From positions 1-64,000 of IMG/VR virus record IMGVR_UViG_3300033070_001497: 64,000 nt of DNA; one strand, 5' to 3'. The position numbers and the translations under genes are program-made. Below are positions 2,085 through 57,287 of this stretch, piece by piece. Every line of letters starts with the position of its first letter. The stretch's first letter is position 1. The notes under the pieces are model-generated. The model did no database searches, was not told the DNA's origin, and saw only the letters and a list, made by a program, of their open reading frames with translations. This stretch comes from a virus. Taxonomy: Duplodnaviria; Caudoviricetes.

Positions 2085-2129
2085 CCCAGTATCTATTGGG
2101 ATTTGGTACTCCGCTTGGCCAGAAATTGT

Positions 2130-2137
2130 TACGTTTG
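2130..2137 (+). promoter_or_regulatory. Bacteroidota-type sigma70 -7 element (TACGTTTG)
   Basis: Matches TAnnTTTG. Also found at 3082, 9599, 14625, 22830, 23651 and 32876, always intergenic. Confidence 0.65.
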
Positions 2138-2160
2138 CCACGTCGATACATAGAAGTACC

Positions 2161-2586
2161 ATGCGGTAGATACACCACAAGCTGACATCGGTCTCACGGA
2201 GAGACCTCACCCCTGGGTACCAGGCGGTTCAATCGGCACATGCACTCATCGATTTCGGCTTCCAACACCCGGAAGCTTACACTGAGTGGCACCGATCCAA
2301 CTACATCGCGATGCTCTCAGTTGCCAATGAGTCAGAACTCCTGGCACTCTTGGATAAGGCCCAGGCGAGAGGCCTCCGGGCCACTGGCTTCCATGAGCCT
2401 GACCTGGACGGGCAACTCACAGCCATCTGCATAGAGCCTTGCGAAGCAACTTCGAAGCTCGTCTCGAATCTCCCACTGCTCCTTCGTGAGCCCAAACCGG
2501 TCCATTCGTCTAGCGGTAAGGCGGCGCTCTCTAAAAGCGAAAACACGGGTTCGAATCCCGTATGGGCCTCAGACTCAAACCCATGA
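2161..2586 (+). CDS. peptidyl-tRNA hydrolase, Pth2-like, with in-frame TAG at codon 3
   Basis: ATG CGG TAG ATA CAC CAC AAG CTG... reads MR*IHHKLTSVSRRDLTPGYQAVQSAHA...FHEPDLDGQLTAICIEP...LVSNLPLL, a Pth2 signature. The track ORF from 2311 lacks the RRDL..G..AVQSAHA segment. Confidence 0.8.
2499..2569 (+). tRNA. amber suppressor tRNA (anticodon CTA) on a Glu/Gln-like body
   Basis: Acceptor GGTCCAT/ATGGGCC, D-stem GTCT/AGGC, anticodon arm CGCT-CTCTAAA-AGCG (CTA at 2531-2533), T-arm ACGGG-TTCGAAT-CCCGT. Confidence 0.88.
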
Positions 2587-2590
2587 TGCC

Positions 2591-2617
2591 ATGACACACT
2601 AGATCCGTCCGCCATAA
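2591..2617 (+). promoter_or_regulatory. putative amber-interrupted uORF MTH*IRPP*
   Basis: ATG ACA CAC TAG ATC CGT CCG CCA TAA, in frame with the ATG at 2666. Confidence 0.45.
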
Positions 2618-2665
2618 AGGTTCGTTGCCTTTCGATCAACAATTCACCAAACAAACAACGAACCA

Positions 2666-3049
2666 ATGAACACTCAGAACATCCAACTGGAAATCGACCA
2701 GGCCAACATCGAATTGGCAATCGATAGGATCAACGAAATGGCGGCCAAGCGAGGCCTCGTCCTCACTGGAGTCCCAAATGCATCGATCCCAGAATTCCCA
2801 TCTAAGGCTCAGTCAAAGAAGTTCAGGCGAAGAATGTCTCGTGTGATCAAGCACGCGACAATGCGCACGAGCAACTGCTTCCTCAGGTATTTCGGGGATG
2901 CAAGGGTCGACCACTCGGACAAGGAGAAGGCGATCATGTCCGCCAGAAAGACTTTCCGTGAACAGCTCAAACTCGCGATGGAACTCCGATCGAAGTACCT
3001 CGAGGAGAAGAGCGACTTCTACCGTGGACAGATGTCCAAAAGTATTTGA
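2666..3049 (+). CDS. hypothetical basic protein
   Basis: 127-aa ORF with an A-rich leader. Confidence 0.7.
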   Translation: MNTQNIQLEIDQANIELAIDRINEMAAKRGLVLTGVPNASIPEFPSKAQSKKFRRRMSRVIKHATMRTSNCFLRYFGDARVDHSDKEKAIMSARKTFREQLKLAMELRSKYLEEKSDFYRGQMSKSI

Positions 3050-3256
3050 GCCGTCAGGTCGCCCAGTTAACCGCAAAAGGGTACGTTTGCGCACATCGAT
3101 GGCCACAACACCGCCATCGATTGACGGGAACATCGGACCCCTATAAACAGAAAGCGGCTTAAATGTGCCATGCAATTAGAACACAGATGGAGAAGAAACG
3201 AAGTCGGGCCCGAGAGGCTGGCCACCGATGCGCTTCGTGGATGCTCCATCTGGCTC

Positions 3257-3330
3257 GGTCCCGTGGCGCAACTGGATAGCGCAGTGCCGTCCTAAGGCAA
3301 TGGTTGCAGGTTCGACTCCTGCCGGGATCA
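3257..3330 (+). tRNA. tRNA-Arg(CCT)
   Basis: Cloverleaf GGTCCCG...CGGGATC-A, anticodon loop GTCCTAA, T-loop TTCGACT. Confidence 0.88.
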
Positions 3331-3359
3331 CGAAACTCATGCTCTATCCGATAGAAACC

Positions 3360-3758
3360 ATGTCCATTCAAAGGCGAATTTCCTCTGCACACGTCGAGGC
3401 GATAAAGGCGAAGGACCAGATCGCGAAGACGATCCTCTCGGTTGTCAAGGGCGAGTTCCAGAACGCCTCGAAGGCGTTCGTAGCCGACGAGCTCCCAGAC
3501 GATGAGGCCACCAAGATCCTTACGAAGATCGCGAAGTCGCTGCGAGAGACGATCTCCCTGAGCGGCGACGAAGAGAGCAAGGCACAGCTCCTGATAGTGG
3601 AGGCCTACCTGCCCAAACAGATTGGCCGAGCCGAGATCGAGGAGAGGATCGGGTCCATGAGAGCACTTGGCCCGCTCACCATCGGCGATGCGATGAAGGC
3701 TTTCGCTGGACAGAACGTCGACCGAAAGCTCGTCCAGGAGGTCTACAACGCCGGCTGA
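3360..3758 (+). CDS. GatB/YqeY domain protein
   Basis: AIKAKD...ILSVVKGE...DDEA.KIL...IVEAYLPKQ. Start moved downstream of the tRNA. Confidence 0.8.
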   Translation: MSIQRRISSAHVEAIKAKDQIAKTILSVVKGEFQNASKAFVADELPDDEATKILTKIAKSLRETISLSGDEESKAQLLIVEAYLPKQIGRAEIEERIGSMRALGPLTIGDAMKAFAGQNVDRKLVQEVYNAG

Positions 3759-6381: not shown

Positions 6382-6858
6382 ATGCGTAGACTCCTCATGC
6401 CCTTTGCGATCATCGCGGCGATGCTGATCGCGTCGTGTGCTAGCCCACACCGGCACTCACGGTCAACTATTGTGCATTGTTACCACAGCGACGCCGATTT
6501 CCTGTGGTGGTACATGATCAACACCAACAACGGGTGCTACTACTACAGTTCCGCATCCCCAGTGACCAATTTCAACCAGACGATCAACTGGACCTATTCG
6601 GCCACGCCACCATCCCAGGTCGCTGGATTGCAGGAGCAACCGACGATGGAAGCTGACATGGCCACACTTGAGCCCGAAGTTGCACAAGACGTGGATGTCG
6701 AGTCAGTAGAGATGGCGTCTGAGCTCGAGCCGGAAGTGGATTTCGACGCCGATGGTGAAGCTGACGCCAGCGATGGCAGCTCGGATGGTGGTAGCTCTGA
6801 CGGTGGAGGCGGAGGTGATGGAGGCGGTGGCGGAGATGGCGGTGGCGGAGGCGACTAG
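6382..6858 (+). CDS. putative lipoprotein with acidic Gly-rich tail
   Basis: Signal peptide ending LIASC; C-terminal GGGGD repeats. Confidence 0.7.
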   Translation: MRRLLMPFAIIAAMLIASCASPHRHSRSTIVHCYHSDADFLWWYMINTNNGCYYYSSASPVTNFNQTINWTYSATPPSQVAGLQEQPTMEADMATLEPEVAQDVDVESVEMASELEPEVDFDADGEADASDGSSDGGSSDGGGGGDGGGGGDGGGGGD

Positions 6859-6894
6859 GCATTTGAACGAACAACCCAAACACAACAACACGAC

Positions 6895-7260
6895 ATGGAA
6901 AACGTAACAACAGACACCGCTCCTTCGCTGGATATGCCGGGAGCATTCGCGGAGACGCTCCGCAGGAGCAACCGTAAGATCCGTGATGACAGGGCCCAAG
7001 CCATCGTCGAGACAACGGAGCTCATCTACAAGCGGACCGTCGAGGACATCGAGACCGAGATCAAGCAGCTCAAGCGGAGGCGCGAGAACAAGCTCGACCT
7101 GAGCCCGACAACGGCCGACTCGCTGACGCTCGCCGACAATTTCGACGCGGCGGGCTTCGTGTCCGAGGACATCAAGATCGGCCTTTCGCTCCGCGAGCTG
7201 GAGATCAAGCTTCAAGTGGCCACTGAGCGCTACAACAAGCTCTTCAAAGCCAGCGTCTGA
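6895..7260 (+). CDS. coiled-coil hypothetical protein
   Basis: 121-aa ORF coupled to the vWA gene. Confidence 0.75.
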   Translation: MENVTTDTAPSLDMPGAFAETLRRSNRKIRDDRAQAIVETTELIYKRTVEDIETEIKQLKRRRENKLDLSPTTADSLTLADNFDAAGFVSEDIKIGLSLRELEIKLQVATERYNKLFKASV

Positions 7261-11916: not shown

Positions 11917-11989
11917 ACCAACCCAGTGAATCCGAGGAGGCGATCTGATGGTCGCCTCTTCGAGGGTTGCAGCGTTGCATAGGATCAAC

Positions 11990-12427
11990 ATGTTTGATCC
12001 TGAGAGCCCAATACACAGCGTAGATTGGTCAGCTGGCATCAGAGACCAGTTGGCCGATGGCACCATCTCCTCGATCACCGAATCGAACGTTTCGTTCCAC
12101 ACCGAACTCACGCTGGAGGAGCTTGGACTCCCACAGGAAAAGATGGAGTTCATGTCGATGGTGGACGACGAGGGCAAGGTGCTTTCGGCCTACTCTAGGA
12201 TGCTCCGCATCGATAGGAAAACGAACGTGAATCTAGAGTTCCAGAAACTGGACGAACTCTCGAAAGCGAATCTCAGCGAGGCTATAGCCGACAGCCTATC
12301 GGAGTACACTCATATCTGGAAGATCATCGAGGCTAGAAACCCGTACTTCATCGCTGGCTACGTCGAGAATCGGGTCCGTTACATCGTCTATGGCGTGAAG
12401 TCCGGCTGGCGTAAAAAGGCCGCATAG
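11990..12427 (+). CDS. hypothetical protein
   Basis: Start placed at the ATG after the GCATAGGA motif at 11977. Confidence 0.6.
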   Translation: MFDPESPIHSVDWSAGIRDQLADGTISSITESNVSFHTELTLEELGLPQEKMEFMSMVDDEGKVLSAYSRMLRIDRKTNVNLEFQKLDELSKANLSEAIADSLSEYTHIWKIIEARNPYFIAGYVENRVRYIVYGVKSGWRKKAA

Positions 12428-12433
12428 GAAACC

Positions 12434-14446
12434 ATGGAAAGACCGTACCTGATGGGCCTCAACGAGGCCCAACTCGAGGCTGTGCTCAACACCGAAGGGC
12501 CAAACATGGTCATAGCTGGCCCGGGCTCAGGCAAGACGCGTGTTCTCACGACGCGCATCGCACACCTCGTGGCAGAGGGCGTGGACCCGTTCAGGATCCT
12601 GGCCCTGACATTCACGAACAAGGCTGCCAAGGAGATGAAGTCGAGGATCTCGAAGCTTCTAGAAGGATCGACGAGCTCTGACTCCGTGTGGGCCGGCACG
12701 TTCCACAGCGTCTTCGCTAGGGCCCTGCGCCTGAACGCTGAGCGCATCGGCTACACCCCAGATTTCTCGATCTACGACTCAGACGACACTCGGTCGTTGA
12801 TCAAATCGGTTGTCAAGTCGATGAGGTTGGACGAGAAGCTCTACAAGCCCGCACTCATCCAGAACAGGATAAGCCAGGCCAAGAACGCGATGATAGGGCC
12901 GTTGGAGTACGCCGAGAATGAGCGCAGGACTGGGTTCGACGAAGAGAGCGGCAGGCCAAGGATCGCCGACATCTACGAGGAGTATGCGTTCCGTTGCTTC
13001 AAGTCGAACGCCATGGACTTCGATGACCTGCTCTTCAACATGGCCCTCATGCTCAGGGACCACGACGACATCCGAGAGCAGTACCAACAGAGGTTCAGCC
13101 ATGTCCTAGTCGATGAGTACCAGGACACGAACGCTGCCCAGTTCGACATCGTGCGCCAGCTAGTCGAGAAGCACAGGAACATCACCGTAGTTGGAGACGA
13201 CAGCCAGAGCATCTACTCCTTCCGAGGAGCCAAGGTCGGCAACATGCTCCGCTTCCTGGAGGATTACCCAGACCACAAGCTGCTCAAGCTCGAGCAGAAC
13301 TACCGCAGCATCGGCGCCATCGTAGACGCGGCCAACTCCGTCATCACGAACAACAAGGACCGGATCGATAAGACCATCTGGACCGAGAATTCGGCTGGTG
13401 ATAGGATCTCGATACACCTCGCGAACAGCGAACAGGACGAGGCCGACTACGTAGCGCGCTGCATAGCAGCCATCGCGAAGGGAAAGGGAGCCAAGCCGTC
13501 TGAATTCGCCGTCCTCTACCGCACGAACGCACAGAGCCGCTCGATAGAGACAGCCCTCTCAGCCAAGGCCATCCCTTACCGGGTGTACGGCGGCATCAGC
13601 TTCTACCAGCGCAAGGAGGTGAAGGACCTCATCGCGTACATGCGGCTCGCTTGCAACCCGAACGACGAGGAGGCTCTGAAACGAGTGATCAACTACCCAA
13701 CACGAGGCATCGGCAATTCGACCGTCGATCGGCTGTTGGCCATAAGCGGCACGCGGAAACTCGGGATCTGGGACGCCATGGACCAGCACCTATTCGACGC
13801 TGGCCTGGGAGATTCCACCCTGAAGAAAGTGAGCGACTTCATCGCGAAGATCAAGGGCTTCCAGGCCGTGGCCAAGGGCCCAGCTTCGGATGCAGTCGAC
13901 CACATCGCCGATTCGTCTGGCGTGATGTCCGAGCTCGGATCTGACCTCAGCCCTGAGGGCCAGGAAAGGCACGACAACGCACAGCAGCTCGTATCGGCCG
14001 CCAAGGAGTTCAATGAGCGGAGGCCAAGCGCGCCTCTCGCAGATTTCCTTGCTGAGATCGCTCTTGTGACCGGATCGGATTCCTCGGACGATGGAACGGT
14101 CAGCCTCATGACGGCCCATGCATCCAAGGGACTGGAATTCCCGTACGTCTTCATCATCGGTCTCGAGGAAGGGCTCTTCCCGAACTCGCTTGGGATGTCT
14201 ACCCGAGAGGACCTCGAGGAGGAGCGCCGGCTCTTCTACGTCGCATTGACCAGGGCCGAGCGCTACGTCTCGCTCGTCCACTCGCAGTCCAGGTTCCGTT
14301 GGGGCCAGGTCGATTACCCTGCGCCGAGCAGGTTCCTCCGTGAAGTGGGCGACGGCGTCACCCGGACACAGAGCCCTCCGAGGCCCAAGCCAGCTACCAC
14401 GCCTCCCTGGGCCCGAGCATTGAAGGACAGAGATGATTCTTTCTGA
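12434..14446 (+). CDS. uvrD: UvrD/PcrA superfamily-1 DNA helicase
   Basis: AGPGSGKT, LTFTNKAA, VDEYQDTN, VGDDSQSIYSFRGA, LEQNYRS, TAHASKGLEF, EERRLFYVALTRA. Confidence 0.93.
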   Translation: MERPYLMGLNEAQLEAVLNTEGPNMVIAGPGSGKTRVLTTRIAHLVAEGVDPFRILALTFTNKAAKEMKSRISKLLEGSTSSDSVWAGTFHSVFARALRLNAERIGYTPDFSIYDSDDTRSLIKSVVKSMRLDEKLYKPALIQNRISQAKNAMIGPLEYAENERRTGFDEESGRPRIADIYEEYAFRCFKSNAMDFDDLLFNMALMLRDHDDIREQYQQRFSHVLVDEYQDTNAAQFDIVRQLVEKHRNITVVGDDSQSIYSFRGAKVGNMLRFLEDYPDHKLLKLEQNYRSIGAIVDAANSVITNNKDRIDKTIWTENSAGDRISIHLANSEQDEADYVARCIAAIAKGKGAKPSEFAVLYRTNAQSRSIETALSAKAIPYRVYGGISFYQRKEVKDLIAYMRLACNPNDEEALKRVINYPTRGIGNSTVDRLLAISGTRKLGIWDAMDQHLFDAGLGDSTLKKVSDFIAKIKGFQAVAKGPASDAVDHIADSSGVMSELGSDLSPEGQERHDNAQQLVSAAKEFNERRPSAPLADFLAEIALVTGSDSSDDGTVSLMTAHASKGLEFPYVFIIGLEEGLFPNSLGMSTREDLEEERRLFYVALTRAERYVSLVHSQSRFRWGQVDYPAPSRFLREVGDGVTRTQSPPRPKPATTPPWARALKDRDDSF

Positions 14447-14664
14447 AGCGACCTACAAGAAATGTGAGTGCTGTGGCAGCATCGGTGAGCAGAAGTCCAC
14501 GGTTGCGATCACTGCAAGGAGGAGTTCAGGCTCGGCGAGTCTGACAACCCGCTCAGAATGTCCGTGTTCTACGAGCTCGGGCGCAAAAGTTTTCGCCTAG
14601 CGGTACCAAGTTCGAAAGAATTGTTACATTTGCACCCTCAACGACCAAGATACATAGAAACCAA

Positions 14665-15603: not shown

Positions 15604-15834
15604 GGGAAAGAGGACCCACCGCTGTTGGCTCGTCCAACAGAGGAAGTTCGCGGCATCCATCTAGGAGGAAGGAGACGCAAGTCGCTCGCACTTCCGCAAC
15701 ATGGGATGCAACCGAAACAGTGGCTAGGCTGGGTGCCTAGAGGCCGGAAAACGCCGCAAGGCGAAACAGCCACGGGTACGGGCTCAGACAAATGGTGGGA
15801 TAAACCAGAACCGCGGCTACGCTCGCCCTCGCGC
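15598..15834 (+). ncRNA. rnpB: minimal RNase P RNA
   Basis: P1 GCGTGAGGG/CCCTCGCGC, P2 CCCACCG/TGGTGGG, P3 CTGTTGG/CCAACAG, GAGGAA-G(T)TCGCGG pairing with AGAA-CCGCGGCT (P4 with bulged U), AGACAAATG, and L15 GGTA. Confidence 0.8.
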
Positions 15835-16469: not shown

Positions 16470-16682
16470 ATGAAACTAGTCAACGAATTACCGAATCTGT
16501 TCGAACGAGCACAGTTCTTTGTTCGGGCTCTTCGAGATGACACTCGATTGTCGAACGAGGAGATCGAGATGGAAGCTGTCTCTGAAATCTGTGACGAGCT
16601 GCTAGATTCGATCGATCTGACAGATCGTAAAGAGCTCAAGAGAGCTCTACGGAACATGTACTTCCTAGGCCAACTCAAATGA
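16470..16682 (+). CDS. hypothetical protein
   Basis: 70-aa ORF between the tRNA and the SLOG gene. Confidence 0.6.
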   Translation: MKLVNELPNLFERAQFFVRALRDDTRLSNEEIEMEAVSEICDELLDSIDLTDRKELKRALRNMYFLGQLK

Positions 16683-17035
16683 AGCTCATAGTCGCTGGTG
16701 GTCGGGATTTCAACGATTGGGATCTGCTGAACAGAACACTGACGAAGATCCTCGAGAGGACCCAGATCAAAGAGGTGATCAGTGGAAAGGCCAAGGGAGC
16801 TGACACGCTGGGTGAGAGATTCGCTTCGGAGAATGGGATCCCAGTGAAGGAATTTCCAGCGGACTGGATCAAATACGGCAAACGGGCTGGGTACCTCAGG
16901 AACAAACAGATGGCCAATCACGGAGAAGCGTTGGTGGCCTTCTGGGATGGCAAGAGCCCAGGAACAAAGATGATGATCGACCTCGCCAAGGAGCTTGGTC
17001 TCAAGGTGCTGGTGGTAAAATACATGGCTGGGTAG
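16679..17035 (+). CDS. SLOG-superfamily (DUF2493/YspA-like) protein
   Basis: IVAGGRDF, ISGKAKGADTLG, AGYLRNKQM, AFWDGKSPGT. Confidence 0.8.
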   Translation: MKLIVAGGRDFNDWDLLNRTLTKILERTQIKEVISGKAKGADTLGERFASENGIPVKEFPADWIKYGKRAGYLRNKQMANHGEALVAFWDGKSPGTKMMIDLAKELGLKVLVVKYMAG

Positions 17036-19821: not shown

Positions 19822-19844
19822 GGTGGCGGTGAATAGATACCGCC

Positions 19845-22193: not shown

Positions 22194-22363
22194 GGAAGAA
22201 GCGGTGCACGAAATGCGGAACACTGACCCACGATTGGGAGGATGCCGGAGGAATCCGATGTTGGCCATGTGGCCGCCAAGCTAGGATCCAAGAAAATCCA
22301 ACCATAGCATTCAACCCACATGAGAGTTCTTTTCCTCGACATCGACGGAGTTCTCAACAGTGA
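22190..22363 (+). CDS. small Zn-ribbon protein
   Basis: MRKKRCTKCG...CWPC; ATGA-coupled. Confidence 0.5.
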   Translation: MRKKRCTKCGTLTHDWEDAGGIRCWPCGRQARIQENPTIAFNPHESSFPRHRRSSQQ

Positions 22364-22829
22364 TGATTGGGACGATCGTCTCCGTGACGACCGTGCCAAG
22401 CCGATCATCGATCAGTACCCTTATTGTCTGTTCGATCCAGACGCCATCTCGAGGCTCAACAGGATCCATGCTGAAACCAGCTGCTTGCTCGTTGTCTCAA
22501 GCATGTGGAGGACCGGGCACACAGAAACACAGCTCCAGGGCATCTTCGACCGGGTAGGAATCATTCCAAGGATCCACTCATACACTCCAATCGGACAGTT
22601 CCAACACCCATCTGGCCTCTGGTCAGCCGGGACCAGGGGAGAGGAGATCGCGGCTTGGCAACGCGAGAACGAGTTCAACTACGCCAACAACCGCTACGTC
22701 ATCTTGGACGATCTTAAGGACGAGTGGCTGGAGTGCCAGCTTCCGTACCTTGTACAGACCGATTTCGACTCTGGGCTCACCGATGAGTTGACCGATCGGG
22801 CAATAGCGATCCTGCTCGCGGCAAAGTAG
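22320..22829 (+). CDS. HAD-domain protein (RNA-repair 'Swiss army knife' type)
   Basis: LFLDIDGVLN, VVSSMWR, RGEEI..W, YVILDD. Confidence 0.8.
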   Translation: MRVLFLDIDGVLNSDDWDDRLRDDRAKPIIDQYPYCLFDPDAISRLNRIHAETSCLLVVSSMWRTGHTETQLQGIFDRVGIIPRIHSYTPIGQFQHPSGLWSAGTRGEEIAAWQRENEFNYANNRYVILDDLKDEWLECQLPYLVQTDFDSGLTDELTDRAIAILLAAK

Positions 22830-22841
22830 TATTTTTGCCGC

Positions 22842-23645
22842 ATGCATTACATCATCCAGGAGAACCTCTTCAGGGAGCCGAACTACGACATGCTGGTCTC
22901 GATCCTTGAGAGGCTGCGATCGACACAGGGCCCAGACGGAGGATTCCAGGTGGTGAAGATCGTGCCGTTCACGAGGGAGATCGTGTTCGAGCGCACGCCG
23001 CCCACGAGCAACGTCTTCTGCTTCGGTTCGGTCAAGATGGCGAGGATCGCTTCCGACTATGGTTGGACACCCGGCTCGTTCATGAACGAGAACCACGACT
23101 ATCGTGTCTACAGCGAGCGGTACGGAAAGGACCAACTCCTCAATGGAGATTCCATCGTATGTAGATTCGCCGACAGTTTCGCTCCGCCAGGGCACATCTT
23201 CTTCGCGCGGCCATGCGAGGACACCAAGACCTTCTCTGGGCAGCTCTTCATCAAGGACTCATGGGATGAGTTCGTGAAGAACAGCCTCGGCAGCGGACAC
23301 ACGACCACACTGAACGCCGACACCGCGATCCAGATCGCCTCGCTCAAGGAGATCCAACGCGAGGTGAGGGTCTGGATAGTGAAAGGACAGGTAGTCACTG
23401 CATCCCAGTACAGGCTTGGCACCCAGGTCATCTACTCCGAGTGCACCGAGCCCTACATCCTCGACTACGCTAGGGAGATGGCAAAGGTCTACCAGCCAGC
23501 GGAGGCCTTCGTCCTGGACGTCGCGATGACGGACAAGGGCCCAAGGATCATAGAGGTCAGCTGCATCAACTGTGTCGGCTTCTACAGGGCCGACATGTCG
23601 AAGCTGATCAATTCCCTTGAAGAGGCTTTCACCGTTCAGCCGTAA
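22842..23645 (+). CDS. ATP-grasp domain protein (DUF4343/R2K-like)
   Basis: FARPCEDTKTFSG, REVRVWIVKG..VTASQY, FVLDVA...IIEV. Confidence 0.75.
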   Translation: MHYIIQENLFREPNYDMLVSILERLRSTQGPDGGFQVVKIVPFTREIVFERTPPTSNVFCFGSVKMARIASDYGWTPGSFMNENHDYRVYSERYGKDQLLNGDSIVCRFADSFAPPGHIFFARPCEDTKTFSGQLFIKDSWDEFVKNSLGSGHTTTLNADTAIQIASLKEIQREVRVWIVKGQVVTASQYRLGTQVIYSECTEPYILDYAREMAKVYQPAEAFVLDVAMTDKGPRIIEVSCINCVGFYRADMSKLINSLEEAFTVQP

Positions 23646-25231: not shown

Positions 25232-25613
25232 TGGAACCGATAGCCAGAGTCTCGAACCGTGTCATCCGTTGGGGTTCGACCGGTTCAAGGGCGCCAAGGG
25301 GTCAGAGCGATGGAGTGGAAGCCGTTACCGATGAGATCGGAAGGTCACGCTATCTCATCTCTGATGGCATGTCGACTGTAGATGGCTACCAGTTCATCAA
25401 GATCATCGGTGCCAGGGCAGAGATCCTGTCAGGCGCAAAACCGACTCGGATTGTAGGGGCAGTTGGCACTGTCGTGGATCGATCTGTTCTCAGACCCACA
25501 ACGGTGAAGTGGTCCAGTTATCCGTCAAACTCGATGGACACAAGGACTTCGGCCACGGAGAGGGCACCTATACGGTCGAACAGTGGAAGGTCCGCCTGAC
25601 CCAGGCCGAATGA
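25228..25613 (+). CDS. hypothetical protein, possibly frameshifted
   Basis: The track ORF ends at 25599, but a -1 frame from about 25490 ends at TGA 25613, coupled to the next ATG. Confidence 0.45.
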
Positions 25614-26014
25614 TAGGCCGGATCTCTTCCGATTTGATAACCGAGCTCAGGCCAGGCGAGATCTTCGTGTTCGGCAGCAACCTTGCTGGCAGGCACGGGA
25701 AGGGCGCGGCCAGGCAGGCCCTCAAATGGGGCGCGAAGTGGGGCCAGGCCTCTGGCCTACAGGGTCGCACATACGGGATCCCTACCAAGGACAGGTCGGT
25801 GACGAGGGTGCTCTCGCTCGCTGAGATCAGGCCGTTCGTTCTCCAATTCATCGAGTTCGCAAAGTCCAGGCCCGAGCTCACGTTCCTGGTCACCGAGATC
25901 GGGTGCGGGCTGTCCAAGATGTCTCCGAAGGATATCGCTCCGATGTTCGAAGGGGCCGCCCACGTGGTGAACATCCACCTCCCTGCCAGGTTCTGGCGTA
26001 GATTGGAATCGTAG
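25610..26014 (+). CDS. A1S_2505-family phage protein (macro-like fold suspected)
   Basis: EIFVFGSNLAGRHGKGAA...TYGIPT...FLVTEIGCGL. Confidence 0.75.
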   Translation: MIGRISSDLITELRPGEIFVFGSNLAGRHGKGAARQALKWGAKWGQASGLQGRTYGIPTKDRSVTRVLSLAEIRPFVLQFIEFAKSRPELTFLVTEIGCGLSKMSPKDIAPMFEGAAHVVNIHLPARFWRRLES

Positions 26015-26035
26015 CCTAGCATAGGATGGAGGCCA

Positions 26036-26248
26036 ATGAGCTTCCACCGCCGCAAGATCACCATGGAATCGATCATCATGAGGGCGAACTCCACTTTTGA
26101 GGAGTTCGATCGCTACATGATGGCCGAAGCGTGCGTGTTCGCGGAGGATGGATCACATGTGATCTGGGAGACTTATAGGGCATCAGGGACAGACGAACGA
26201 ATCAACCTACATGCAACCTTCAGAACCAAAGCCAATAGTAAGCCTTGA
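26036..26248 (+). CDS. hypothetical protein
   Basis: Follows a GCATAGGA motif. Confidence 0.5.
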   Translation: MSFHRRKITMESIIMRANSTFEEFDRYMMAEACVFAEDGSHVIWETYRASGTDERINLHATFRTKANSKP

Positions 26249-32888: not shown

Positions 32889-34775
32889 ATGGCAGAAGCA
32901 ACCGCAGTCTCGCACCTCGAGAAGCTCGAGGGCGAGTACCTTCAGGCCAAACAGGCCTACTACAACGGTGCTCCGATCATGACGGACGCCGAGTTCGACG
33001 AGCTCGAGGATCAGCTTGTGGCTCTCAATTCCACAGTCACCACGAAAGTAGGTGCGGTCGGAAGCTACGACCGCAAGCACCCTTCGCCGATGCTCTCGCT
33101 CTCGAAGATCATGGTGATGGAAGACGACAAGCTGCCGATCGAGCAGTTCGAGAAATGGGCGTCCAAGGTGCCCGGGCCCACGCAATTCGAATACACACCC
33201 AAGCTGGATGGCTCATCGTGCAACTTGGTCTACATCAACGGCCAACTCGATTCAGCCATAACTCGAGGAGACGGCATCCATGGCACGGACATCACCGCCA
33301 AGATGCGGATGATCGTGCCGCACTCGATCTCGTGCACCGACCGAGTGGAGATCCGAGGCGAGGTGGTCATCAGGTCTGACATCTTCGCTCTGAAGTACCA
33401 GAAGGATTACAAGAACCCAAGGAACTTTGTGGCCGGTGTGTTGGGCCGCAAGGAGGACTTCGACGAGGCGAAGGACTTCACCTTCATCGCCTTCGAGGCG
33501 AGGATCCACAAGGATGGTGAGATCCAGTATGTGAAGATCGAAAGCGTCGATGGGAACGGCAACGTCGGAAGCTCCAATTTCAACCTCCCATACAGCTTCA
33601 TCGCGACGGCCAATGAATTCGATAAGGCATATCGGACGATGCTCTCGCATCGCATCGATTCATCCCTATTCCAGCTCGATGGATTCGTCGTCAAGTATCC
33701 ATACATCCATCGGGCCGATCTCGGAGAAAATGACCACGACCCAAACTGGGCAGTGGCCATCAAATTCCCACCGAAGGAAGCGATCACCGACGTGATCGGG
33801 CTCGAGTGGAACGTTGGATCCACATCAGAACTCTGCCCAGTGGCGGTGCTGAGGCCGGTGTTCCTCGATGGAACCGAGGTCTCACGGGTGTCAGTCTACA
33901 ACTACGGCAATGTCTCCAAGCTCGGCCTCTATCCGGGTGCAAGAGTGGCCATTGCCAAGTCTGGCGACATCATCCCGATCGTCAAGCGTGTGATCACACC
34001 GAGCACCAATGGGTCGGCGCCAGCCAGGTGCACATGTGGATCCGTCACAGAGATCGATGGCATCCACGTCTATTGCACAGGCGACACATGCGGAGATCGT
34101 GACCTGGTCAAGATCCGTCGAGGCCTCACTCTCCTCGGCGTCAAGAACTTCGGCGACAGCACGGTAGAGCGCCTGATGCAAGCCGGGATCAAGCGCATCC
34201 AGGACTACTTCGACGCTTCGAAGTTCAACAAGCTGGCGCTCATCAACAGCGGTCTCTTCAAGCCAGGACGCTCGCTCGACATCATTTTCGATTCCTTCAA
34301 CGAGCGCAAGCCACTCACACTTGACCTCGCTATCGTGATCCTCCAGTTCGACGGCGTCGGTCGAACGATCTCGAAGGCCATCGCCCAGCACATGGTCGGC
34401 GGCACACCTGACTTCAGTGGTATGACCAAGGAGGTGCTCGCAAGGATGCTGAGCCCGATCTCGGAAGAATCTCGAGCGGTGCGCGCGTTCCTCACTTTGC
34501 TCTCCGACAACGGGCACAAGGTCGAGAACCCCAAGAAGGTGAGCGCAGATGCCATCAAGATCGAGATGACCGGTTCACCGAAACCGCACTGGAACACGAA
34601 AGACGCGCTCATGGCCGAGCTCGCTGCCAAGAATGTGATCCACCATGGCCTCAAGCCAGACACCACCTACCTGGTCACAGACGACAAGAACTCCACTTCA
34701 TCCAAGATGGCCAAAGCCGCCAAACTCGGAGTCAAGGTGATCACCTACGCTGAGCTCAAATCCATCATCGCATAG
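32889..34775 (+). CDS. ligA: NAD-dependent DNA ligase
   Basis: AYYNG...DAEFD, PKLDG, TRGDG, EIRGE, DGFVVK, AIKF, SGDIIP, C-terminal BRCT. Confidence 0.93.
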   Translation: MAEATAVSHLEKLEGEYLQAKQAYYNGAPIMTDAEFDELEDQLVALNSTVTTKVGAVGSYDRKHPSPMLSLSKIMVMEDDKLPIEQFEKWASKVPGPTQFEYTPKLDGSSCNLVYINGQLDSAITRGDGIHGTDITAKMRMIVPHSISCTDRVEIRGEVVIRSDIFALKYQKDYKNPRNFVAGVLGRKEDFDEAKDFTFIAFEARIHKDGEIQYVKIESVDGNGNVGSSNFNLPYSFIATANEFDKAYRTMLSHRIDSSLFQLDGFVVKYPYIHRADLGENDHDPNWAVAIKFPPKEAITDVIGLEWNVGSTSELCPVAVLRPVFLDGTEVSRVSVYNYGNVSKLGLYPGARVAIAKSGDIIPIVKRVITPSTNGSAPARCTCGSVTEIDGIHVYCTGDTCGDRDLVKIRRGLTLLGVKNFGDSTVERLMQAGIKRIQDYFDASKFNKLALINSGLFKPGRSLDIIFDSFNERKPLTLDLAIVILQFDGVGRTISKAIAQHMVGGTPDFSGMTKEVLARMLSPISEESRAVRAFLTLLSDNGHKVENPKKVSADAIKIEMTGSPKPHWNTKDALMAELAAKNVIHHGLKPDTTYLVTDDKNSTSSKMAKAAKLGVKVITYAELKSIIA

Positions 34776-34778
34776 CAC

Positions 34779-35351
34779 TTGAAAGGGAAGAGAATCGTGA
34801 AGGTGTGGACCACTGCTGATCTGAAAATCATCAGGGACAACTGGAGAACGCAAACCGACGACGAGTTAGCGGTTGCGCTTGGAGTATCCTATAAAGCGCT
34901 ACAGGCTCAGAGGTTGCGGATCGGCATCAACAGGCCACCCAACTGTTCAGGCCTTGTCAGGGCCAAAATGGCTCCCAAGAAACCGTCACCTAAGAAGGGA
35001 AAGCCTTTCACTTCCACCAGAAAGGGGAGAAAGATGAGGATGATCAGCGTCTTCTATCCTGACGGAACGAAGAAGACCATGACCTATGGGAAGTACCTGT
35101 GGATCAGAGAGAATGGTCCGCTTTCGGAAGGCAAAGAGCTGATGTTCCTGGACGGAAACGCTCTCAACACGAAAATGAGCAACCTGGCTCCGATGACTCG
35201 CAGCGAGGGAGCCCGGTACACACAGCTCAGAAGATCCACTGAGGAGAGGAGAGCCGCAGCGGCAAGGATGGTGGCGAAGCAAAAAAAGGCTAAGATGCTA
35301 CGGCTGTATCTCGAACACAAGCCCTACGAGTTCAAAAGAGAAGCCGCTTGA
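34779..35351 (+). CDS. basic DNA-binding protein with degenerate HNH motif
   Basis: WTTAD...LA..LG helix-turn-helix; FLDGNALNTKMSNL. Confidence 0.6.
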   Translation: MKGKRIVKVWTTADLKIIRDNWRTQTDDELAVALGVSYKALQAQRLRIGINRPPNCSGLVRAKMAPKKPSPKKGKPFTSTRKGRKMRMISVFYPDGTKKTMTYGKYLWIRENGPLSEGKELMFLDGNALNTKMSNLAPMTRSEGARYTQLRRSTEERRAAAARMVAKQKKAKMLRLYLEHKPYEFKREAA

Positions 35352-56825: not shown

Positions 56826-57287
56826 ATGCCGCTAGACAAAGACCAACTGAAAGAGAGCATCAAAACCGACCTCTCGACGACGATCGCCCAGAGCTTGACC
56901 GAAACACAGGAAGCGCTGTCAATTGCACTGAAAGACTCCGATGGTGGTTTCTATTCTGCGCTTACTAACATCAAGAATCGGGCCGAAGCGTTGGCTGGAA
57001 CCGATGTTTCACAATTCGTTCCAGCAGTTCAACTGATCGTTTCAGAGGAGTTCGCAAAGACCATCTCAAAGAAGATCGTCGAGGCTCTCAATTCAACTTG
57101 GGTAGAAAAGGTCAGTGAAGCCTTAGCGAAGTGCATATCGACTCGGATAGACGAGTACATCAAGAGCGCAGAAATCAGGGTACCTCCTGGCGCATCAGTC
57201 TATGTTCCTCCTCCATCAACTGGAGTCGGTGCAAGCGCAGGCCAAGCCTATGTCCAAGGAATTTCGAACCCTGCGACTATTAGGTGA
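56826..57287 (+). CDS. hypothetical baseplate-region protein
   Basis: MPLDKDQLK...IDEYIKSAEI. Confidence 0.7.
   Translation: MPLDKDQLKESIKTDLSTTIAQSLTETQEALSIALKDSDGGFYSALTNIKNRAEALAGTDVSQFVPAVQLIVSEEFAKTISKKIVEALNSTWVEKVSEALAKCISTRIDEYIKSAEIRVPPGASVYVPPPSTGVGASAGQAYVQGISNPATIR

Follow-up and report, generated by a model that had tools for sequence, protein, structure and literature searches.

Results

A Pth2-like gene with an in-frame TAG at codon 3

We analyzed the locus of a gene for a peptidyl-tRNA hydrolase 2 (Pth2)-like protein in a stretch of viral DNA of 64,000 nucleotides (nt) (Duplodnaviria; Caudoviricetes; IMG/VR record IMGVR_UViG_3300033070_001497), hereafter the window. The window comprises the first 64 kb of a 109,314-bp phage-like contig (G000), which has a GC content of 54% and carries 21 tRNA genes. 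The open reading frame (ORF) of the Pth2-like gene has a TAG as its third codon, herein termed the gate, and a tRNA gene with the amber-suppressor anticodon CUA (tRNA-CUA) lies within its 3′ end. The main features of the locus are listed here by position in the window:

2127..2195, + strand: 69-nt block identical in the window and its relative L001, covering the GATACATA box, the ATG start codon, the gate and nine codons after it
2145..2152, + strand: GATACATA box, a copy of the octamer DATA[GCA]ATA, 8 nt before the ATG at 2161
2161..2586, + strand: Pth2-like ORF with the TAG decoded, 141 codons followed by a TGA at 2584–2586
2167..2169, + strand: the gate, an in-frame TAG at codon 3 with A as the next base, present in 8/8 assemblies and in 64–65 of 67 viral relatives
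2170..2498, + strand: conserved body of 109 residues with a predicted Pth2 fold, supported by a low substitution ratio against L001, by the protein profile and by an AlphaFold2 model
2499..2570, + strand: tRNA with anticodon CUA (amber suppressor), found with ARAGORN and Rfam, inside the 3′ end of the ORF

The initial annotation of this DNA had described a frame starting ATG CGG TAG at 2161–2169, with no ATG, GTG or TTG before the conserved segment. Both statements were confirmed in the sequence. The 47 codons after the TAG contain no ATG, GTG or TTG, the first being the ATG at 2311, and the conserved RRDL..GYQAVQSAHA segment lies within this start-less stretch. The terminal TGA, placed by the same annotation at 2586, occupies 2584–2586, with 2586 as its last base. 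Public gene calls annotate only the 91-residue 3′ part of the frame. The RNA structure around the gate is unremarkable (z-score −1.6).

The product of 2161–2586 is predicted to be a Pth2-fold, peptidyl-tRNA-hydrolase-like protein, with the activity suggested by fold and family. The Pfam PTH2 model (PF01981) matched marginally, with 24.2 bits against a cut-off of 23, and the match to phrog_1866 had an E-value of 6.9e-14. A profile built from the family (A2) matched a solved archaeal Pth2 over its full length (E 5e-10). The AlphaFold2 model had a predicted local distance difference test score (pLDDT) of 93.7; in Foldseek, template modeling (TM) scores to Pth2 structures ranged from 0.74 to 0.82, with 0.82 to 3erj, and 3erj, 2zv3, 1wn2 and human Bit1 (1q7s) were each returned with a probability of 1.00. 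Every family member keeps the motifs Q-S-x-H-A and E-P-D, which are candidate active-site motifs and correspond in the alignment to V-Q-V-A-H-A-A and D-A-G of AF2095.

A tRNA-CUA inside the reading frame

The tRNA-CUA was recovered by ARAGORN at 2499–2570 (anticodon CTA) and by the Rfam tRNA model at 2499–2569, with 56.4 bits against a gathering threshold of 29. It lies wholly inside the open frame, so that the earlier description of a well-formed CTA tRNA within the frame stands. The sequence folds into a cloverleaf with a 7-nt anticodon loop (C-U-C-U-A-A-A), and CCA is not encoded. The top pair of the anticodon stem (2524/2540) is mismatched in both lineages compared, as G-A in the window and A-C in L001, leaving a stem of 4 bp; a paper of 2026 is said to link 4-bp anticodon stems to the reading of stop codons. 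The tRNA is most similar to CUA tRNAs from other Pth2 loci (85% identity to that of L053). Among the named tRNAs of the phage library, tRNA-Glu comes nearest (77%), and a comparison with E. coli gave no match. Judging from the sequence, the tRNA-CUA is presumably made and charged, and read-through of the gate presumably takes place.

The gate is identical in all assemblies and the codons after it are under purifying selection

Searching with the 91-residue database protein recovered six further assemblies of the same phage and one diverged relative, L001, with about 85% DNA identity to the window. All eight assemblies, which derive from seven or more sequencing runs, agreed on the TAG and had both ATG CGG TAG and the tRNA. 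Between the window and L001, codons 4–50 had a synonymous substitution rate (dS) of 0.73 and a nonsynonymous rate (dN) of 0.038, giving a dN/dS ratio of 0.05, and codons 51–112 had a dN/dS of 0.047. Codons 4–50 contain no canonical start codon, and their dN/dS of 0.05 shows that they are translated. The 69-nt block centered on the gate is the longest identical run in the alignment of the two lineages; elsewhere, the gene bodies are 81.5% identical, the upstream spacers 79% and the tRNAs 95.8%.

These data bear on whether the TAG is a sequencing or assembly error or the mark of a recently inactivated pseudogene. Gene callers annotated just the 3′ part, as might be expected for a broken gene, but eight assemblies agree, the codons after the TAG are constrained and the feature recurs throughout the family. 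The chance of an error or pseudogene is thus negligible, and this explanation is refuted as far as sequence data allow.

Further searches around the window lineage yielded little. A scan of viral sequences with the single protein found no close relatives of this lineage, and an exact 22-nt pattern of the tRNA had no match in metagenome contigs. The protein scan of metagenomes returned three distant loci only: two gated contigs of 74% GC, and an ungated gene with a tRNA-CUA immediately after it. The two gated contigs (L099, L100) are short and without a tRNA, and have M-R-H-R-TAG before the conserved strand.

The gate is a TAG throughout the family

A protein profile retrieved 263 relatives from IMG/VR, of which the best 80 loci were examined; these represent 67 distinct genes, and the family counts below refer to them. 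Going upstream from the conserved body, the first stop codon met in frame was TAG in all 67. An ATG lay one to seven codons before the TAG in 64/67, and exactly two codons stood before it, as in the window, in 38/67. Only eight genes had a canonical start codon after the TAG and ahead of the first conserved strand. A second TAG in the gene body was found in only three, although each body has 4–12 CAA or CAG codons, and the final stops of the 66 complete genes were TAA in 49, TGA in 17 and TAG in none. Of 65 gates, 54 were followed by A and 10 by G (purine in 64/65); Bossi in 1983, and Miller and Albertini in the same year, reportedly found that a purine after TAG favors amber suppression.

A tRNA-CUA on the same strand within 3 kb accompanied 52 of the 67 genes, often 66–75 nt upstream, and CUA was by far the commonest anticodon near family genes. 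The few ungated members (L036, L090, L088) had no CUA tRNA in reach. The initial annotation had asked whether an early TAG and an adjacent CTA tRNA co-occur in homologs, and the answer is strongly positive (64/67 gated, 52/67 with a tRNA-CUA). The window shows every element of this module: an ATG followed by one to seven codons, a TAG and a strand of the form K-L-x-V-x-T-R-x-D, an end other than TAG, and a tRNA-CUA on the same strand within a few kb. Other tRNAs occur at these loci as well. Across L012–L091, there are 24 instances of a tRNA-Cys (GCA) as the neighbor of either the Pth2 gene or the CUA tRNA, and copies of tRNA-Met (CAT) are frequent. Several tRNAs at family loci have odd anticodon loops and were left unnamed by ARAGORN; an example in L095 has C-U-A at the anticodon position.

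Is the TAG decoded at all? One alternative is that it never is, and that translation starts after it, at ATA 2170 or CTG 2182 in the window, or re-initiates after a two-codon upstream ORF. In some members of the family, the fold would put up with an N-terminus of very few residues, and two mycobacteriophages described below have a GTG start directly after the TAG. Yet a start-stop ORF needs no particular stop codon, and a plain one in AT-rich genomes would mostly use TAA, whereas the stop here is TAG in 67/67 and never TAA or TGA, the codons with which the genes end. The exclusive use of TAG therefore points to decoding by a CUA anticodon. In addition, 59/67 genes lack a canonical start codon in the interval from the TAG to the conserved strand, the linkage to a tRNA-CUA is close, and the spacing of the upstream octamer indicates the ATG at 2161 as the start. 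We consider a start after the TAG quite improbable.

A second alternative accepts decoding and denies it a regulatory role: the TAG would be a tolerated substitution, or a relic of a code-15 ancestor, made harmless by the suppressor. Phages with suppressor tRNAs accumulate in-frame stops (Borges et al., bioRxiv 10.1101/2021.08.26.457843), and two lineages, the window and L001, cannot by themselves show selection for TAG. However, a TAG at one specific position in about 65 diverged genes, with only three other TAGs in their bodies, is not drift; the identical 69-nt block is centered on the gate, and the phage has no other in-frame TAG in its genes. A TAG without a role is accordingly held to be improbable.

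The preferred reading is that translation of the Pth2-like protein begins at ATG 2161 and gets past codon 3 only when the phage's own tRNA-CUA decodes the UAG there, gate and tRNA forming a conserved lock and key that couples the enzyme to suppression. We regard this reading as likely. The earlier claim that the full-length enzyme needs amber read-through is in line with the comparison across relatives, by which suppressor-dependent synthesis of the Pth2-like enzyme is well supported and rather probable.

Several observations weigh against this reading. Two cultured cluster C mycobacteriophages may have a way round the gate. In GenBank, 206 mycobacteriophage records annotate a Pth2 homolog, and in Alice (L097, 2470–2480) and Phabba (L098, 2470–2480) the TAG is kept just before the annotated GTG start, as ATG TAG GTG or GTG TAG GTG, with a well-spaced Shine-Dalgarno sequence for the GTG directly after the TAG. 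The gate may thus be bypassed in both phages. Members of the family with just two or three residues before the conserved strand would still fold, and a start after the TAG is therefore structurally tolerable. The Pfam PTH2 score barely exceeds its cut-off. The tRNA-CUA resembles no sense isotype clearly, and its G1-C72 pair and U73 discriminator are atypical for a bacterial tRNA-Gln; the glutamine of database homologs is a TAG called under code 15 and is no guide to the residue inserted. Finally, at least 11 of the phage's own genes end in TAG with no back-up stop nearby, and read-through would extend the ligase into the HNH gene, so that a strong suppressor should be costly. Alice and Phabba have a tRNA-CUA 130–250 nt downstream, and the one in Alice is annotated as 'tRNA-suppressor (cta)' 250 nt after the Pth2 gene.

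Database sequences of the family need care. We considered the idea that the TAG replaces a conserved Gln, as homologs begin M-K-Q-I, and rejected it: two database proteins translate only with TAG read as Q, which makes the argument circular. A third database homolog was called from a downstream TTG though its DNA reads ATG AAA TAG. The Q at residue 3 of database homologs is a gene-calling artefact. The three entries (P0005, P0013 and P0019 of the public protein database) are code-15 calls or start at a downstream TTG, and alignments made from them hide the gate.

The phage otherwise uses TAG as a stop

ORF coverage was 93.6% under code 11, and the gains from reading TAG as sense were no larger than those of the controls. 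TAG terminated 11 of the 93 scored ORFs. The proteins concerned include a full-length NAD-ligase, an RNaseH-like protein, a SET protein and a HAD protein; in the NAD-ligase and the RNaseH-like protein, the domain matches reach the end of the protein, where the TAG follows. This bears out the earlier claim that TAG is an ordinary stop elsewhere. The pattern that marks code 15, namely many genes with in-frame TAG and no use of TAG as a stop, was not found in the contig, and a search of it for other gated genes found none besides the Pth2-like gene and the mini-ORF at 2591–2617 described below. In a local recoding test of the 80 family loci, reading TAG as sense raised the value from 0.60 to 0.69, and the TGA control reached 0.67, about the same gain, so that this test does not discriminate. 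To judge from ORF coverage and the genes ending in TAG, the phage uses the standard code, and the gate is locus-specific and not part of a genome-wide code 15.

The TAG stops are unevenly placed along the whole contig, with 10 in 41 genes before 40 kb and 1 in 52 after (Fisher p = 0.001); therefore, the structural genes avoid TAG. Past 40 kb, TAG stops are limited to the region around 93.1–93.8 kb, where they end an ORF of 66 residues and the gene of a GIY-YIG homing endonuclease. In five cases (6382–7260, 11948–14446, 22320–23645, 25583–26248 and 32889–35351), a gene ending in TAG shares its frame with the next gene, which follows only 1–12 codons on, and suppression would fuse these neighbors, for example the NAD-ligase with the HNH endonuclease behind it. 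As functional read-through fusions, the pairs of ligase and HNH, of a 159-residue protein and UvrD, of HAD_SAK and ATP-grasp, and of GIY-YIG and dUTPase were rejected, the halves being separate families with starts of their own. A candidate second gate at 57284 (GTG AGA TAG) was likewise dismissed, since the TAG there belongs to a promoter-like octamer.

RNA-repair and tRNA-linked genes lie around the tRNAs (16679–17035, 22320–23645 and 3228–3758 in the window; 1610–2407 in L002). They comprise a YspA-type SLOG domain, the HAD domain of 'Swiss Army Knife' RNA repair proteins, an R2K ATP-grasp and a YqeY protein, and a GatB_Yqey protein lies just upstream of the window start.

The overlap of ORF and tRNA is most likely incidental

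The initial annotation had interpreted the embedded tRNA as a device for truncating the message, with two-codon minigenes causing peptidyl-tRNA drop-off that the enzyme would clear. In full, that model holds that the minigene provokes drop-off, that Pth2 recycles the products, and that excision of the tRNA cuts the mRNA by design. Some features of the locus are compatible with it. No stop codon lies between the Pth2 body and the tRNA in the window or in L001, and an RNase P cut at 2498/2499 would, hypothetically, yield a stop-less mRNA ending near the usual C-terminus of the family. The tRNA region also includes, at 15604–15828 (+ strand), a stretch that fits the archaeal RNase P RNA model weakly but over its full length (31.8 bits, with a gathering threshold of 84; local E 3.9e-7), and such an RNase P-like RNA would bear on the processing of the phage tRNAs.

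The comparison speaks against the model. None of the 67 relatives has an overlap of ORF and tRNA, the nearest tRNAs lying 38 nt upstream and 136 nt downstream. The part of the ORF that overlaps the tRNA has a dN/dS of 0.83 at a dS of 0.10, so that the constraint there is that of a tRNA and not that of a protein. No constraint at the protein level is seen in the 30-residue tail, and one frame in three through the tRNA-CUA is open by chance. Because of the unconstrained tail and the chance of an open frame, the overlap is most likely incidental and due to a lost stop codon. The mRNA-truncating device of arfA type is thus unsupported. The same applies to the logic of the lambda bar minigene: the codons before the TAG vary from one to seven across the family, so that what is conserved is not a minigene of exactly two codons. 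We rate the model as a whole as of rather low probability.

The overlap could also be read as part of a feedback. The embedded tRNA and the gate would form a self-limiting loop that keeps the degree of amber suppression fixed, TAG still being needed by the phage as a stop. If the suppressor were scarce, ribosomes would stop at codon 3, the RNA downstream would be free of ribosomes, and the tRNA would fold and be excised, so that the suppressor would rise. If it were plentiful, ribosomes would cross the tRNA sequence and unfold it, blocking its maturation, and transcripts already cut would become stop-less messages ending at the natural C-terminus of the family. Such a loop appears unlikely.

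Upstream box and putative promoter

The GATACATA box occurs five times in the window, always on the + strand, against 0.55 copies expected. The octamer DATA[GCA]ATA, of which it is a copy, is repeated across the whole contig, with 24 plus-strand and 5 minus-strand copies, and at least nine copies stand 4–8 nt before called start codons, often at exactly 4 nt (examples in the window are at 19832, 42377, 49697, 51462, 58653 and 60677). The octamer may be a phage promoter for leaderless messages. Its copy 8 nt before ATG 2161 has a spacing within the 4–8 nt seen at other starts, which supports ATG 2161 as the start codon, and the message of the Pth2-like gene is perhaps leaderless or near-leaderless. 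The host-type promoter of the initial annotation was not borne out: the window has a single sigma-70-like match at the locus (9 of 12 positions), which overlaps ATG 2161, and shuffled sequences give 0.7 matches. Two GATACATAGAA boxes (2124–2155 and 14625–14660) share an extra upstream block, AATTGTTAC-r-TTTGC, with spacings that differ by 9 nt. The shared block could be a site for one regulator at the head of both the Pth2 locus and the main tRNA cluster.

A second gated ORF precedes the next gene

Directly after the Pth2-like gene, the locus continues as follows:

2591..2617, + strand: mini-ORF with a gate, M-T-H-TAG-I-R-P-P-TAA, with the TAG at 2600–2602, kept in L001
2619..2627 and 2656..2664, + strand: arms of a predicted 9-bp hairpin, 2 nt after the TAA of the mini-ORF and 1 nt before the ATG at 2666
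2666..3049, + strand: gene of 127 residues downstream of this leader, with homologs after the Pth2 gene in L050, L072 and L034

In L001, three of the four differences within the mini-ORF are synonymous third positions. The leader pattern M-x(1-4)-TAG-[IVL]...P-[PTS]-stop was found 33 times in the forward and once in the reverse orientation in the 80 loci, mostly just after the Pth2 gene. The leaders of relatives end in RPP, RAPP, KAPP, RGPT or RAPT, and that of the window in I-R-P-P. The hairpin arms are conserved in L001 and the loop has diverged, while the fold of the whole 110-nt hairpin region has a z-score of −0.9. The 127-residue protein matched no Pfam or PHROG family, and its Atlas model was poor (pLDDT 0.51). 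Judging from this arrangement, the mini-ORF at 2591–2617 probably gates the next gene in the same way: a ribosome that reads through its TAG would sit on the hairpin that covers the start of that gene and would open it.

Discussion

Relation to known systems

The nearest precedents are phages with suppressor tRNAs in which TAG is read as Gln, or 'code 15' (Borges et al., bioRxiv 10.1101/2021.08.26.457843; Peters et al., PMC9523058). As in the window, a phage tRNA-CUA there allows the expression of genes that contain an in-frame TAG although the host has the standard code, an arrangement proposed as a timing device. In contrast, the window has a single TAG at a fixed N-terminal position of one enzyme gene, besides the mini-ORF, and TAG ends at least 11 of its genes. 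The preprint of Borges et al. (10.1101/2021.08.26.457843) makes no mention of Pth or any hydrolase.

The prfB gene for RF2 also has an early in-frame stop, UGA, in a gene for a translation factor whose synthesis depends on competition at that stop. However, prfB escapes by a +1 frameshift and senses its own product, whereas the frame in the window is kept and the component sensed would be the suppressor tRNA. The lambda bar minigenes share with the window an ATG, one codon and a stop in a phage, and a link to peptidyl-tRNA hydrolase. The bar ORFs end there, being free-standing two-codon ORFs, and act by tRNA sequestration, while the window protein continues in frame under purifying selection, and the stop is always TAG. 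The likeness to arfA, in which excision of the tRNA would leave the upstream ORF stop-less, is hypothetical in the window and specific to its lineage.

PTH2 genes are present in jumbo phages, for which ribosome rescue after tRNA cleavage was proposed with no mention of a suppressor or an in-frame TAG (Iyer et al. 2021, PMC7824862). These proteins and the 'peptidyl tRNA hydrolase' of cluster C mycobacteriophages belong to the same family as the window gene; Alice and Phabba keep the TAG but have a GTG start directly after it. As to the mini-ORF, arrest leaders of the RAPP type are known from ApdA, ApdP and ApcA, and from SecM with RAGP (PMC7897499, PMC10951233, PMC12992588). The likeness, which lies in sequence geometry only, consists of a short upstream ORF ending in an Arg-(x)-Pro-Pro-type motif beside a hairpin over the next start. 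The window leader differs in that its I-R-P-P lacks Ala or Gly, it has eight codons, and its motif is reached only after read-through of an internal UAG. A full-text search of the literature returned nothing linking Pth2, an in-frame TAG and a suppressor tRNA, and we found no published description of the Pth2 amber gate.

A proposed lock and key for amber suppression

Under the preferred reading, that of a Pth2-like enzyme made only when its codon-3 UAG is decoded, ribosomes would release a dipeptide and no enzyme would be formed as long as the suppressor is lacking. The gate would tie the supply of the enzyme to the level of amber suppression, and we infer that the enzyme would recycle the extra load of peptidyl-tRNA and stalled ribosomes that suppression brings. 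The purpose of this coupling, together with the ideas of minigene drop-off and of truncation, is put forward as a set of hypotheses.

To the family, the window adds a test of selection across the gate, an example with 54% GC and the standard code, an overlap of ORF and tRNA, and a warning about code-15 gene calls: gene callers either shorten the gene, here to 91 residues, or silently use code 15, which puts a spurious Gln into database sequences. The locus is also a compact part for controlling expression by suppressor tRNAs. Phage suppressor tRNAs have so far been discussed mainly in the context of genome-wide recoding, whereas the window presents a dedicated one-codon lock and its key in one enzyme family, a pairing kept across dozens of very different phages. 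If read-through indeed occurs, the locus is a natural sensor of stop-codon suppression and would link the recycling of peptidyl-tRNA to suppression. Taken together, the suppressor, the gated enzyme, the gated leader and late genes without TAG stops could represent an early step toward a change of the genetic code.

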